DNA of 63,073 bases from Candidatus Brocadiia bacterium (GCA_050015075.1 JBEKCB010000031.1:1-63073); one strand, 5' to 3'; shown: positions 51,772 through 59,090, counted from the first letter of the stretch. A program made the numbers and translations. The notes: generated from the letters alone by a model not told the origin.

Positions 51772-52077
51772 ATGAGCCAATTCAGTTCACGGTGGCCGTT
51801 CCTGCAGCTCGGCGTTGGACTGGCGGCGGCTCTCCTTGCGACGGCGATGGTCTCCTGCGCGACCCATGCGCCGTCCAAACCGGCGGCGGAGCAGAAACTC
51901 ACCGGCCAGGACCTGTATGCCATTAATTGCGGCCGCTGCCATCCGGAACGCTATGCGACGGAGCGTACGGCGGGGCAATGGAAGACGATCATGCTGCACA
52001 TGCAGGTACGGGCGAATCTCCCTCCAGACCAGGCGAAGGCGGTCCTCAAGTATCTTCAAGAAGACAGCGGCAGGTAA
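51772..52077 (+). CDS. Small monoheme cytochrome c lipoprotein
   Basis: Lipobox MVSC, CGRCH, distal HM; GAGG RBS. Confidence 0.8.
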   Translation: MSQFSSRWPFLQLGVGLAAALLATAMVSCATHAPSKPAAEQKLTGQDLYAINCGRCHPERYATERTAGQWKTIMLHMQVRANLPPDQAKAVLKYLQEDSGR

Positions 52078-52095
52078 TTTTGAGGAGCTTGGCTT

Positions 52096-53487
52096 ATGAT
52101 GACTCGCTCCCTGATCCTTGAAGCGGCGGCCGCCGTCTGCATCCTGGCAGTCATTCTTCCCCAGCCCGCGGCTGCGGAGGTGTCCGATGACGAGTTCAAG
52201 GCGCTGAAGGAGGCCGTTCAGCAGTTGACCCAGCAGCAGCAGGAACTCCTGAAGCAGCACGCGGAAGACCAGAAGCAGCGGGCCGAAGATCGGCAAAAGA
52301 TCCAGAAATTGGAGGAACAGTTATCCGCGGCTTCGAAGGCGCAGCCGTCCGGCGAAGCGGTCACCGGCGAGCAGTTCAATTCGCTGAAGAGCGCCGTGGA
52401 CAAGTTGAGCCAGCAGGTTGCCGCCCCACCCAGCGGGCCGTTCGCGCTGCAGGACTTTATGATTGTGGGCGACGCGGAGACCCAGTTCGCGAAGGTCCAG
52501 GGGCAGCATGGCGGATTCGCGCTGTTCGATTTTGCGCCGATCTTCCTGCTCCGGGCCTCTGACAAGGTGCTGTTTGAGGCCGGGTTCGACATCAACCTGG
52601 TGGATAATCCGCAGGATAATAATACCCCCGGCGCTTCGACATCGCTCACCCTAAGTTTCGCCCAGTTGGATTACCTGCTCAATCAGTACGCGACGCTGGT
52701 GTCCGGCTACATGCTGCTGCCCCTGGGCACTTACGCCGAGCGGAACGCGGGCTGGCTGAATAAGTTTCCGGACGACCCGTTCGTGCGTGACTTCATACTG
52801 CCGGGCGCCGGCGCGGGCGCACAGGTGCGCGGGGCTGTGCCGTTGGACGCGTCAGGACAGACGCTCGCCTATGCCGCTTATGTCGTTGACGGACCGAGTT
52901 CGAGTGTATCCACCGGCGCTCCCGCCGGCTCGCTTGACCTCACGGGCAATGTTGGGATTACGAACAACGGCAAGTTTGCGAATTTGCACGCTTCGCCCAG
53001 CGCCGGCGGCCGCGTCGGATGGTTCCTGCCCTGGAAAGGGCATGATCATTACGACCTGGAACTCGGAGTTTCAGGCCAGGACGGCGTTTGGAACAACGCA
53101 AATAACGAGTCGTGGGCCGCCGCCGTAGGCGATGCCGCTCTGCACCTCGGCCCTTACTTCGAAGCCAAGGGCGAGTACGTCAATACCTGGGCGGAGACCT
53201 CAGACCTCGGGCACATTTACCCGCATGGCTGGTGGGCGCAACTGGGTTACAAGCTGGCGGGCCTGGATCTGGACCTCCCGTTGATCAACGACGTCGAGTT
53301 GGTCAGCCGTTATGACGAGATCAGAGACGGGCTTGGAATGAGAACCGAGCGGTACTCATTCGGTTATGTCTACTACCTTACGAACACGCTGCATTTCATC
53401 GGCGATTACGAAATCATCAACGGCAACAGTCAGGCGGTGATTCCTTCGGCCAACCAGTTGATCTTCCAGCTCACCTACGGGTTCTAA
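52096..53487 (+). CDS. Outer membrane beta-barrel porin with N-terminal coiled coil
   Basis: Signal AAA, Gln/Glu-rich coiled coil, amphipathic strands, GGRVG, C-terminal QLTYGF. Confidence 0.75.
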   Translation: MMTRSLILEAAAAVCILAVILPQPAAAEVSDDEFKALKEAVQQLTQQQQELLKQHAEDQKQRAEDRQKIQKLEEQLSAASKAQPSGEAVTGEQFNSLKSAVDKLSQQVAAPPSGPFALQDFMIVGDAETQFAKVQGQHGGFALFDFAPIFLLRASDKVLFEAGFDINLVDNPQDNNTPGASTSLTLSFAQLDYLLNQYATLVSGYMLLPLGTYAERNAGWLNKFPDDPFVRDFILPGAGAGAQVRGAVPLDASGQTLAYAAYVVDGPSSSVSTGAPAGSLDLTGNVGITNNGKFANLHASPSAGGRVGWFLPWKGHDHYDLELGVSGQDGVWNNANNESWAAAVGDAALHLGPYFEAKGEYVNTWAETSDLGHIYPHGWWAQLGYKLAGLDLDLPLINDVELVSRYDEIRDGLGMRTERYSFGYVYYLTNTLHFIGDYEIINGNSQAVIPSANQLIFQLTYGF

Positions 53488-53506
53488 TGGAAGCGAGGCA
53501 AGAAAC

Positions 53507-55947: not shown

Positions 55948-56414
55948 GCCAACCCGCCGACGGCAAGCTGAACCGGCGCGATTTCGTCAAGCTGACCTTC
56001 GGCTGGGGCGCCGCGCTGTTTGCGACGGGGGCCTCGGCCGCCGCGGGGGCGCGGTTCCTGGTCCCGAACGTGCTGTACGAGCCGGACCAGCGCTACAAGG
56101 CGCTCAAGCCGGACGATTATCCCGAGGGCATAACGTTCCTCCCCGAAATCCGCACATTCCTGATCCGCAACGGCGACCAATTGCGCGCGATATCGGCGGT
56201 GTGCACGCATCTCGGATGCACCGTCAATCCCAGCGCCGACGGCAAAGGCTTCCATTGCCCGTGCCACGGCAGTCAGTTCGACGAAAACGGCGCCGTCATC
56301 AGCGGCCCGGCACCGAAACCACTGCCCTGCCCTGCCGTGTCTCTGAGCCGCGACGGCCGGCTGGTGATTGACGCCTCGCAGCAGGTGCCCCCAACCCAGG
56401 CGCTGGTGGTCTGA
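55944..56414 (+). CDS. Rieske iron-sulfur subunit
   Basis: Tat-like [29 protein letters not shown] overlap. Confidence 0.93.
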
Positions 56415-56415
56415 T

Positions 56416-57693
56416 ATGCCTAAACGACTTTGGAATCTCTTCTGCTCTTCGCGGATCGGCCGCTCGATCTTCCGCGTGGGACTGCCGGCGAGCAATCTGG
56501 ACCGGATGCGGGCGGCGGTGTCGAGTTTCGTGCTCCACATCCACCCGGCGAAAGTCCACGCGCGGACGTTGAAGTTCGGCACGACGCTCGGCCTGGGCCT
56601 GATTTCGCTCTACCTGTTCATCATCCTGGCGGTGACCGGCGCGCTGCTGATGTTCTACTACGTCCCGGCGACCGACCAGGCGTATCAGTCCATGAAGGAC
56701 CTCGAATTCGTCGTCACGGCCGGGCAGGTGGTGCGCAACATCCACTCCTGGGCGGCGCACCTGATGGTCGTCTTCGTCGGGCTGCACATGTGCCGGGTGT
56801 TCTACACGGCCGCGTACAAGCCGCCGCGCGAGTTCAACTGGGTGGTCGGCCTGGCGCTGTTTCTGCTGACGCTGGGGCTGTCCTTCACCGGCTACCTGTT
56901 GCCGTGGGACCAGTTGGCGTACTGGGCGATCACCGTCGGCACCAGCATCGCCGGGTACGCGCCGCTGGTGGGCGAAAAAATGAAGTTCATCCTGCTCGGC
57001 GGCCACACCGTCGGGCAGGCCGCGCTGATCCGGTTCTACGTGCTGCACGTGGTCGCGCTGCCGGCCGCGATGGCCCTGTTGATCGCGATTCACCTGTGGC
57101 GGGTGCGGACGGACGGCGGCCTGGCGCGGCCCGAAGAGCCGGAGCCGGCGCCGGAGCAGATGCCCGCGACGGCGCTGCCGCAAACCAAGACTTACGGCTT
57201 AATGGAACTGGCGCGCGGGACGACGCCGAAAGTCGGCGTGCCGCTCGACGACCTCGTCTTCACCTGGCCGCACCTGCTGTTCCGCGAGATACTCCTCTTT
57301 CTGTTCGTCTTCGCCCTGGTGCTGGTGCCGGCGATTCTCTGGAACGCGCCGCTGGAAGAGATTGCCAACGCGGTGTACCCGCCGAACCCCGCCAAGGCGC
57401 CCTGGTATTTTCTGGGCCTGCAGGAGCTGGTGTCGCACTCGGCCTTCTGGGGCGGCGTCGTGGTTCCGGGGCTGATCGTCACGGCCCTGGTGGTGCTGCC
57501 GTACCTCGATCGCAAGCCCAGGGGCGTCGGCGTGTGGTTCTCGGGAGAGCGGAAGGTGGCGATCGCGATTTTCACCGTGTGCCTGGCGACGATGCTGACG
57601 CTGACGGCGATCGGATGCTGGTTCCGCGGACCGAACTGGGCGTTGCAGGCGCCGTGGAAGCCCCACGTCGTGACGGAGGAGCGCCGGCCTTGA
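56416..57693 (+). CDS. Cytochrome b (b6-like plus subunit IV in one chain)
   Basis: [42 protein letters not shown]. Confidence 0.92.
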
Positions 57694-59090
57694 TCGAACC
57701 TTCTCCGCGAAGTTTATATCCATGGTTCACGGCGCTGGGGCTGCTGGTCGGCGCCCTGGTCATTGTGGCGTTTTACAAGGACCAGTTTCGGGAATGGAAA
57801 GAATGGCAGCACGCGTACGTCCAACAGGAACGGGCCCGCGCGACGACGCCGGCTCAGAAGGCCGCGGCGGCGCGCATCCCGGTGGAGATCCGGCAGACTC
57901 TTCTGCCGGGACTCAACCGCGTGGATCGTTGCGAGACCTGCCACCTGGTGGTGGATGACGCCAGCTACGCCGGTTTGCCGCAGCCGCTGGCGTACCATCT
58001 CAACCACGACCGGCATCCCTTCGAAAAGTTCGGTTGCACCATCTGCCACCAGGGCCAGGGCCGCGCCACGACCCGCGAGGCGGCTCACGGCCAGGTCGCG
58101 CACTGGGACCGCCCGATGCTGCCGATGAAGTACATCGAGTCGGCCTGCGCCAAATGCCATCTGCCCAGCGACGTGCCCGGCGCGCCGCAGTTGGCGCGCG
58201 GCCAAGGCCTGTTTAACGAGCTCGGCTGCATCGGCTGCCACAAACTTCATGGCGTCGGCGGCGCGATCGGTCCGGATCTGGATACGGTCGGAGACACCCG
58301 CAGTCCCGAGTGGCTCGCCAAACATTTCAAGGCCCCCGCCGCCGTCACGGCCGGGTCAGCGATGCCGCCGGTCACCGTCAGCGATGACGACCTGGAAGCG
58401 CTGACCCTGTACATGCTCAGCCTGACCGGCGAGCCGATGAGCGACTATTACGTCTCGATGAAGACCCTTCCCGGCCTCGAGGCCGGCCGCCGGTTGTTCG
58501 CCGAGAAAGGCTGCATCGGCTGCCACAGCATCGGCGGCAAGGGAGGAACGGTCGGCCCGCCGCTCGACGAAGTCGGCAAGCGCCACGATGCGGAGTGGAT
58601 CATCGCCCATTTTCGCAACCCGCAGGCCGTGACGCCGGGCAGCGTCATGCCGCGGTTCAGCTTCACCGAACAGGAGATCCGGTCGCTGACCGACTTCCTG
58701 CTCACGAATACCGCATCGAGCATGATCGGCTCCCTGAAGATTCCCGCGCTGATGACGCCGGTCGAACGCGGCCGGGAAGTGTTCGTGAAATACGGTTGCA
58801 CCGGCTGCCACGGTCAAGACGCCAACACCGGCATCCGCAATCCCAACGCCAAGACCGCCCAGCAAGTGCCTGGCCTGAAGTTCGTCGCCGAAGGGTACAC
58901 GAAGGACGAATTGAGGAAGCGCATCCTCGGCGGCCAGAAGGAAATCCCGAGGTTGGATCCGAAAGGCCCGCAACCGCCGCTGTACATGCCGGCGTGGCGC
59001 AGCCGGATCGCCGAAGGCGAGTTGAACGACTTAGTCGAGTACCTGATGGGCCTCGTCCCGAAGAGCGAACAGGAAAAAGAGGCTTTTTGA
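57690..59090 (+). CDS. Membrane-anchored hexaheme cytochrome c
   Basis: N-terminal TM; CETCH, CTICH, CAKCH, CIGCH, CIGCH, CTGCH; TTGA overlap and GGAGGAG RBS. Confidence 0.88.

Follow-up and report, generated by a model that had tools for sequence, protein, structure and literature searches.

Anammox bacteria carry Rieske/cytochrome b complexes with an NAD(P) oxidoreductase subunit, and for those of Kuenenia it has been proposed that quinol oxidation is bifurcated between NAD(P)+ and a high-potential acceptor. Rieske potentials above +300 mV have been measured for these complexes, and the energetically favourable partner reaction of one of them, Kustd1480-1485, is described as unknown (PMC12954380). 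Here we analyse a seven-gene block at 51772-59090 of a 63,073-nucleotide stretch of DNA from Candidatus Brocadiia bacterium (GCA_050015075.1 JBEKCB010000031.1:1-63073), the whole of which is referred to as the window. Judging from their sequences, the four distal genes of this block encode a core of the anammox type, and the three genes ahead of them encode an outer-membrane porin and two small monohaem cytochromes c, referred to as cytc1 and cytc2.

Porins and cytochromes also come together in other described systems. The extHIJKLMNOPQS cluster of Geobacter sulfurreducens contains a porin with weak likeness to the phosphate porin OprP, c-type cytochromes and a Rieske/b6/subunit-IV set, and its ExtI is needed for selenite and tellurite reduction by a mechanism given as unknown (PMC5877670). 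Cyc2 is a 16-stranded barrel with one c-type haem, for which OprO and OprP are the best templates (PMC8406198). Conduits of the Mtr/Pcc type and the porin-multihaem cytochrome (porin-MHC) systems of Verrucomicrobia (He et al. 2017) are built from barrels of at least 20 strands that are threaded by proteins of 8-10 haems (PMC5615132).

The aggregate data presented herein are best explained by a composite, envelope-spanning electron-transfer operon made up of two separately evolving modules. The seven-gene arrangement is far beyond chance, the same order being found in six other genomes and in 9 of 16 metagenome contigs.

Layout and composition of the seven-gene block

The first-pass annotation had described seven co-oriented, tightly spaced or overlapping genes, and seven + strand open reading frames (ORFs) are indeed found there, separated in order by 18, 19, 29, -4, 1 and -4 nt. 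The 29-nt gap, the widest of the block, is located precisely at the border between the porin-cytochrome module and the core. A non-coding leader within the conserved block, at 51568-51771 (+), is the putative promoter region; nucleotide similarity to a close relative (genome G409, locus L002) begins at 51568, and to judge from the gene spacing a single promoter may serve all seven genes. Terminator-like sites occurred at chance level (6 versus 7.7 in shuffles) in a scan that is uninformative for these phyla. The upstream neighbour of the block is a GHMP-kinase/nucleotidyltransferase fusion gene that ends at 51373, and the downstream neighbour is a WD40 Ser/Thr kinase gene on the opposite strand. 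Contigs from three other peat runs span both borders, the upstream one being bridged by X5 (51336-52152) and X10 (51336-51833) and the downstream one by X5 (58375-60652) and X6 (58375-59335). Therefore, the junctions are not artefacts of a single assembly, and an assembly chimera is ruled out.

The core opens with the 645-aa product of 54010-55947, which appears to be a GltD/NfnB-like iron-sulfur flavoprotein binding FAD and NAD(P). It contains the Pfam domains Pyr_redox_2 (3.9e-28) and Fer4_20 (1.4e-16) and a C-terminal 2x[4Fe-4S] ferredoxin domain, matches the NCBIfam model NF009410 (2e-131), displays GAGPAG and GGGNVA dinucleotide sites together with 22 Cys, including two CxxCxxCxxxC motifs, and is without a membrane segment. 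The next gene (55944-56414; 156 aa) encodes a Rieske 2Fe-2S protein (PF00355, 1.7e-14) with the cluster motif CTHLGC...CPCH and a twin-arginine signal, NRRDFVKL. It is followed by a b6-type cytochrome b (56416-57693; 425 aa; Cytochrome_B 1.4e-39 and Cytochrom_B_C 3.5e-4 in Pfam) in which the subunit-IV-like part is fused into the same ORF. The haem-ligand His residues of this protein (110/124 and 211/226) have b6 spacing, six hydrophobic segments are present, and it is the sole cytochrome b found in the genome. The block closes with a membrane-anchored hexahaem cytochrome c (57690-59090; 466 aa, six CXXCH) that has an N-terminal hydrophobic segment at residues 8-31 and matches Cytochrom_C in three stretches (8.3e-32); in this protein, three haems packed close together precede three class I domains. 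No product of the block carries eight haem motifs or gives a match resembling hydroxylamine oxidoreductase (HAO).

Homologues of the hexahaem cytochrome occur in 69 of 401 Planctomycetota genomes, anammox-like families included; in the 68 of 400 genomes other than that of the window (E<=1e-20), top identity is merely 37%. When 20 kb was compared at each of the 16 best hexahaem loci, 10 contained all four core genes at 31-53% identity, the counterparts of the GltD-like subunit being 33-47% identical. Several non-anammox Planctomycetota loci share the gene order of the window, and families of the same class have the rearranged anammox order. The core is rare in Verrucomicrobiota, where it was found in 5 of 401 sampled genomes (E<=1e-40). 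Domains, motifs and Planctomycetota homologues thus agree with the initial assignment of the core to the anammox Rieske/cytochrome b type with an NAD(P)H oxidoreductase, and its composition is shown by homology: the four distal genes are those of an anammox-type Rieske/cytochrome b complex with an NAD(P) oxidoreductase subunit.

The 463-aa product of 52096-53487 is predicted to be an outer-membrane porin of 16 strands with the OprO/OprP fold. In its AlphaFold2 (AF2) model, which has a mean pLDDT of 65 and values under 50 in several loops, a signal peptide is followed by a long helix at about residues 31-109, predicted to form a periplasmic coiled coil, and by 16 strands as counted by DSSP; the sequence ends in YGF. 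Foldseek searches with this model returned OmpU, OprO (4rjw) and OprP (2o4v), all trimeric 16-strand porins, at E of about 1e-12 to 1e-11. Membership among ordinary phosphate or solute porins had been named beforehand as an observation that would refute an electron-transfer role; such a grouping was found at the level of the fold, and Cyc2 is likewise OprO/OprP-like. Family libraries would miss this porin because it has no Pfam match (E<=0.01) and no NCBIfam family. Indeed, an NCBIfam search of three of these porins at E<=10 gave coiled-coil noise and no known porin family, and a porin profile run against the sequences of the Protein Data Bank (PDB) gave chance coiled-coil matches only, the best of them (E 0.13) involving a '50 kDa outer membrane protein' at its N-terminal coiled coil. 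PF07396 was matched weakly by 11 of 35 homologues (best E 3.6e-4) and not by the window porin itself (Pfam, E<=0.01), and the neighbours of the porin in a language-model search include clusters annotated OprO/OprP. Homologues amount to 1571 protein clusters at E<=0.001, of which the best 120, at 50-88% identity, are labelled 'hypothetical' and are mostly from Verrucomicrobiota. The porin is single-copy in its genome. A second porin of the window, encoded at 30503-31807 (-), belongs to the OprB carbohydrate-selective family, so the genome has annotated solute porins too.

Cytc1 (51772-52077; 101 aa, one CXXCH) consists of a signal peptide with a lipobox-like VSC, a short linker that is variable across the family, and a haem domain of ~58 aa with the motif CGRCH and invariant H76 and M77. 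Its AF2 model shows three helices, with pLDDT of 82-95 across the haem domain; a fold search with this model gave no match at E<=0.001, the weak rows being c6-like proteins, SorB, PgcA domains and DHC. The family is wide, with 1345 small-cytochrome representatives at E<=0.001. Cytc2 (53507-53980; 157 aa, one CXXCH) is a predicted periplasmic monohaem cytochrome c with the motif CTQCH and a Lys/Glu/Ala-rich C-terminal helix, and weakly resembles the C-domain of Chlorobium cytochrome cz (3a9f, E 0.003).

Linkage, mobility and surroundings of the two modules

The pairing of cytc1 with the porin is obligate, a second cytochrome follows the porin, and the resulting unit has repeatedly been joined to the core. 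A cytc1 homologue is located directly upstream of the porin in 16 of 16 genome loci, in both L085 and L086, whose porins are 32-41% identical, and in 68 of 68 informative metagenome loci, the last tallied from the best 80 of 514 stretches confirmed in a porin-alignment scan. Of 60 metagenome loci informative on the gene after the porin, 58 have a c-type cytochrome there, which is cytc2 in 47, a dihaem protein in 9 and a dihaem protein on the other strand in 2; the remaining 2 have other genes. For 23 loci the gene after cytc2 could also be read: it encodes the GltD-like protein in 12, class I cytochromes in 8 and a Rieske/cytochrome b set without GltD in 2, and nothing was recognised in 1. Sixteen metagenome contigs extend 7.2 kb or more past the porin; of these, 9 contain the full core, 5 class I cytochromes only and 2 neither. 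Similarly, among 13 genome loci with downstream sequence, the core is missing from 10, which encode a conserved dihaem cytochrome of ~270 aa, and is complete in 3 from Verrucomicrobiae, with cytc2 ahead of it and 67-86% identity to the window. In its C-terminal domain the dihaem protein is similar to Thermus c552 and to the cytochrome part of haem-fused NirK; BLASTP of cytc2 with the dihaem protein, or with cytc1, gave no significant pairwise match.

The porin-cytochrome unit is therefore an independent module that is found alone, beside oxidase genes, or joined to the core. For example, ctaA, ctaB and coxI lie within 5 kb downstream in three cytochrome-only loci. At L108:12681-16668, L146:12539-16467 and L153:10023-13856, and also at L106 and L011, the module is followed by lumazine synthase and a CarboxypepD_reg-like gene and then by ctaA, ctaB and coxI. 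A row without a GltD-like subunit is found at L145:4941-11178, where cytc1, porin and cytc2 are succeeded by Rieske and by a b6-type cytochrome b of reduced length, and then by a small cytochrome-like ORF and a gene for a cytochrome c assembly protein. At L017:10001-16933, from a Verrucomicrobiae metagenome-assembled genome (MAG), the porin, the GltD-like protein, cytochrome b and the hexahaem cytochrome are each split over at least two frames, which reflects either frameshift assembly errors or a decaying copy.

The six other genomes with the full seven-gene order (G409, G406, G407, G408, G586 and G568) come from two phyla. In the close relative G409, at 87-93% nucleotide identity, the contigs break at the porin/cytc2 junction. 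In G586 and G568 the order is kept at 32-41% identity for the porin, 43-45% for cytc1, 69-80% for GltD and 65-71% for the hexahaem cytochrome; in view of this divergence of the porin, the association would be old within this core clade and not the result of one recent cassette. In a tree of the porins, with a midpoint root only, the stand-alone porins form one clade (support 96/93), and opposite it lie the core-linked porins in three distinct pairs, each strongly supported and two of them long-branched.

In loci lacking the core, cytc2 is followed by a free-standing cytochrome that is 53% identical to the last domain of the hexahaem protein (343-461), and the architecture without GltD contains a partial match to the same domain. 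Cytc2 thus accompanies the hexahaem terminal domain in three different architectures. Because cytc2 travels with that domain even without the core, there is a hint that the last class I domain of the hexahaem cytochrome may be its docking partner.

Other cores are differently equipped. Upstream regions of seven Planctomycetota cores and of Verrucomicrobiota locus L089, inspected by eye, contain no haem-porin, and one locus has a 10-haem protein. The core of G695 has an NrfBCD-like set and other cytochromes in place of the porin module: at L087:1105-5057 a tetrahaem cytochrome, a Tat-signal 4Fe-4S protein, an NrfD-like protein and a small cytochrome precede the core (families by eye), and the NrfD-like membrane protein is fused to what looks, by eye from the translation, like a cyclic-nucleotide-binding-like insert. 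G652 and a second locus of G568 have cores with nothing comparable to the porin module.

The block also appears to have moved as a unit. What the window shares with G409 at this place is 51568-59106 only, and the flanks of the G409 block match other contigs of the window's genome, C8 upstream and C30 downstream. The window core is 67-86% identical to those of Verrucomicrobiae, as compared to at most 37-53% for other Planctomycetota cores, and the simplest reading of these sequences is that the whole block was transferred, in either direction, between Verrucomicrobiota and a Planctomycetota lineage. In G409, the operon is preceded by a long gene of ~260-bp repeats (L002:712-5412), many 70-81% identical copies of which occur on C8, C29, C38, C11, C9 and C10 of the window's genome. 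Just past the 3' end of the operon in G409 (L070:7200-7349) is a ~150-bp element with counterparts at two places on C30 (89-91% identity), which may be a repeat bordering a movable block.

The window's genome, which is 93.6% complete, encodes two haem-copper oxidases, several NuoD-like genes and three NrfD-like genes, one of which, beside coxI on C30, is likely to represent an alternative complex III. The core as the cell's only quinol:cytochrome c route was rejected on account of this gene. DNA sequencing runs containing half or more of the sampled words of the stretch were all peat metagenomes, and no RNA run was listed as containing it. At 47239-48278 (+), some 3.5 kb ahead of the operon, the beginning of a gene for a membrane-anchored monohaem cytochrome c of 193 aa is overlapped by a desulfoferrodoxin-like gene; these two, with a hemerythrin gene at 45821-46603 (-), may constitute an oxygen-stress set. 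A PIN (VapC-like) toxin and Phd/YefM antitoxin are encoded at 48459-49120 (-), between this small cytochrome and the sugar-kinase gene. Elsewhere in the window, a row of genes at 9318-16763 (+) for two Proton_antipo_M subunits, a NuoK-like protein, a NuoC/D-like protein (504 aa) and a NuoB-like protein with 2x4Fe-4S resembles a membrane-bound group-4-hydrogenase or an Mrp/complex-I-related module.

Proposed electron flow and rival explanations

We consider it likely that the two modules are correctly assigned and that electrons pass between them, whichever way they run. In the scheme that we favour, menaquinol would be oxidised at the b6-type cytochrome b. One electron would go by way of the Rieske cluster to the hexahaem cytochrome, anchored in the membrane and facing the periplasm, and the other would pass through the b haems to the cytoplasmic GltD-like iron-sulfur flavoprotein, where NAD(P)+ would be reduced, a bifurcation such as that proposed for Kuenenia. 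For the outer module we infer, from gene linkage, that cytc1 is bound at or in the pore of the 16-strand porin and that cytc2 is a soluble carrier, which would shuttle between the last class I domain of the hexahaem protein and cytc1. Cytc1 would in turn exchange electrons with a small soluble substrate entering the pore; in acid peat, the likeliest candidates are iron chelates and humic compounds resembling quinones. We lean towards outward flow, from quinol to an outside oxidant, because the only scheme worked out for such complexes requires, on their c-haem side, a high-potential sink, which such an oxidant would provide, and because the reverse reaction would burn NAD(P)H; taken together with the assignment and the link, this direction is held tentatively, at somewhat less than even confidence. 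By analogy, and more doubtfully, cytc1 and the porin may constitute a two-gene ('split') haem-porin, a haem site in the outer membrane that exchanges electrons with humic quinones or iron in solution and is hard-wired through cytc2 and the hexahaem cytochrome to the NAD(P)-reducing Rieske/b complex. The conduit from NAD(P)H and quinone to an outer partner that was suggested at the outset can fairly be drawn from the type of core and the conserved module, although not as a conduit of the Mtr/Pcc type.

Structure prediction of the porin with cytochromes had also been suggested, and the prediction for porin, cytc1 and haem together gives weak support, with a median score of 0.58 as compared to 0.00 for the best of three controls. 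The mark set for this score was reached by 116 of 157 solved complexes and by 2 of 215 mismatches, and at scores of 0.60 or under by only 18 of those 157 solved complexes and by both passing mismatches. The runs agree in at least 6% of contacts, with partner pLDDT of at least 71.

Several observations weigh against this interpretation. The three prediction runs disagree (0.58, 0.89 and 0.23). The mature porin has no Cys and no CXXCH, its only Cys being in the signal peptide, and it shares the fold of ordinary solute porins. One haem is not enough to bridge the membrane, and therefore the substrate would have to be small, soluble and able to enter the pore. A search for fused forms of cytc1 among longer proteins gave only one match, of 188 aa, and no fused cytochrome-porin of ~440 aa occurs in the best 150 of 1345 cytc1 profile matches, the long proteins among which are multihaem proteins aligned at CXXCH only. 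Conservation of the porin and small cytochromes beside the core, for which a neighbourhood search had been proposed, holds in the closest relatives, but porin, cytc1 and cytc2 are absent, within the 20 kb compared, from 16 of 16 more distant Planctomycetota core loci, and the module is absent from 3 of 3 other, more distant Verrucomicrobiota cores. Conversely, no hexahaem orthologue was found anywhere in the six stand-alone genomes examined. Given the two haem-copper oxidases and the likely alternative complex III, cytc2 could simply feed an oxidase. Finally, a sigma-70 promoter scan of the block found 0 sites versus 0.8 expected, the scan being uninformative for these phyla.

The same wiring might instead run inward, cytc1 and the porin being a two-gene counterpart of Cyc2 that oxidises Fe(II) or another outside reductant at the pore. 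Electrons would then pass through cytc2 to a terminal oxidase or into the Rieske/cytochrome b complex, and the operon would thereby become an 'uphill' branch leading from external iron in the direction of quinone and NAD(P)H. We regard this as possible if rather doubtful. The characterised monohaem-porins with a 16-strand OprO/OprP-like barrel are all Fe(II) oxidases (PMC8406198, PMC13741234). The order of the genes, cytochrome then porin, is also that of the Cyc2 domains. The habitat is peat, and the stand-alone modules carry class I domains of the c552/CcoP type, which are usual oxidase donors. Moreover, seven stand-alone modules lie 3-5 kb upstream of ctaA and/or coxI, an arrangement that resembles the cyc2-cyc1-cox gene order of Acidithiobacillus; this neighbourhood fits inward as well as outward flow and is thus a further point against our preferred direction. 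Run in reverse, however, an NAD(P)-linked Rieske/b complex would consume NAD(P)H, to judge from the published scheme (PMC12954380), and a search of 5 genomes that have the seven-gene order found RuBisCO in none of them (other routes of CO2 fixation were not searched for), such that there is no obvious need for a large uphill flow. Fused relatives of cytc1 and the porin were not found either.

It is less likely that no electrons are exchanged at the outer membrane at all, the porin being an ordinary solute or anion channel of the OprO/OprP kind and the small cytochromes serving, as soluble carriers, to connect the terminal oxidases with the Rieske/b complex or with alternative complex III. The fold, which groups with general and phosphate porins, would agree with this, as would the weak PF07396 matches, the OprO/OprP annotations of language-model neighbours, the lack of a haem motif in the porin, the weak docking prediction and the oxidases of the genome. 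A solute channel would nevertheless hardly account for a cytochrome immediately upstream in 86 of 86 informative loci and a second one downstream in 58 of 60, a linkage that persists at 32-41% porin identity and through at least four downstream contexts. It is highly improbable that the modules are independent transcription units that became neighbours through co-transfer or a shared regulator, with no direct electron path between them. Each module does exist apart from the other, and the widest gap falls exactly at their border, yet 29 nt leaves little space for a terminator and a promoter, neither of which was detected there. Adjacency and order are also kept at 32-41% porin and 65-71% hexahaem identity, adjacency is found in 9 of 16 fully informative contigs, and cytc2 co-occurs with the hexahaem terminal domain in three architectures.

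If cytc1 and the porin do form a split haem-porin, a single transcription unit would connect extracellular iron with NAD(P)H in the cytoplasm, complexes of this class would gain the high-potential partner long sought for them, and a system abundant in peat and soil Verrucomicrobiota would have been invisible to current annotation. In any event, the block encodes a predicted periplasmic carrier and outer-membrane partner together with the complex, which makes the question of the partner reaction testable, and a large porin family without annotation, its members invariably accompanied by c-type cytochromes, is present in peat and soil Verrucomicrobiota. Should this family handle iron or humics, it would provide a new marker for peat redox cycling that current libraries miss.

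Comparison with described systems

The block had initially been likened to known porin-cytochrome conduits, and like MtrAB, PioAB, Pcc and the Verrucomicrobia porin-MHC it has porin and cytochrome genes side by side, with outer-membrane electron transfer proposed. The analogy does not extend to their structure. The predicted barrel of the window has 16 strands and its partners carry one haem each, such that no haem wire would cross the membrane; an Mtr/Pcc-type conduit was rejected on these grounds. The Verrucomicrobia porin-MHC, with eight haems and at least 20 strands (He et al. 2017), is likewise a different system from the window module.

Cyc2 of Acidithiobacillus and Mariprofundus is closer. 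It too combines one c-type haem with a 16-strand OprO/OprP-like barrel, the cytochrome coming ahead of the porin; in both cases periplasmic c-type cytochromes come next, with an oxidase or a bc-type complex in some of the loci. The likeness is one of architecture. Cyc2 is a single polypeptide with an N-terminal CXXCH domain, whereas the window module comprises two genes, and the window porin, unlike Cyc2, has its own signal peptide and a predicted periplasmic coiled coil.

The first-pass annotation recognised no characterised system with such a layout. This needs amending, since the partly characterised Geobacter cluster extHIJKLMNOPQS joins porin, cytochromes and Rieske/cytochrome b (PMC5877670). 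The b and c subunits of the window stay below the NCBIfam cut-offs for the ext proteins (ExtP, 270.7 versus 290; ExtQ, 72.4 versus 150; ExtS, 73.6 versus 100), and the b and hexahaem subunits are thus, by sequence score, relatives and not members of ExtP/ExtQ/ExtS. Unlike the ext cluster, the window block has no rhodanese, no selenoprotein ExtKL and no 10- or 12-haem cytochromes, and it has an NAD(P) flavoprotein, which the ext cluster is without. Searches of the open literature gave no description of a monohaem cytochrome and 16-strand porin joined to an NAD(P)-linked Rieske/b complex.

For the core, the nearest relatives are the anammox complexes Kustd1480-1485 and Kuste4569-4574, which likewise combine in one operon a Rieske protein, a b6-type cytochrome b with a subunit-IV-like part, a GltD/NfnB-like iron-sulfur flavoprotein and a hexa- or octahaem cytochrome c. 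The Kuste4569-4574 type has an HAO-like octahaem partner, and the block is closer to the Kustd1480-1485 type. It differs from the Kuenenia operons in its gene order, GltD-Rieske-b-hexahaem, and in having cytochrome b and subunit IV in one ORF, and identity to loci of the same class is 29-52%. Nor is the genome of the block of the anammox type, given its two haem-copper oxidases. The core is therefore of a kind known from anammox bacteria, and what sets the block apart is the previously unannotated module in front of it, whose identity is corrected here: unlike anammox-type cores (0 of 16 Planctomycetota loci), it carries a predicted outer-membrane porin and two monohaem cytochromes.

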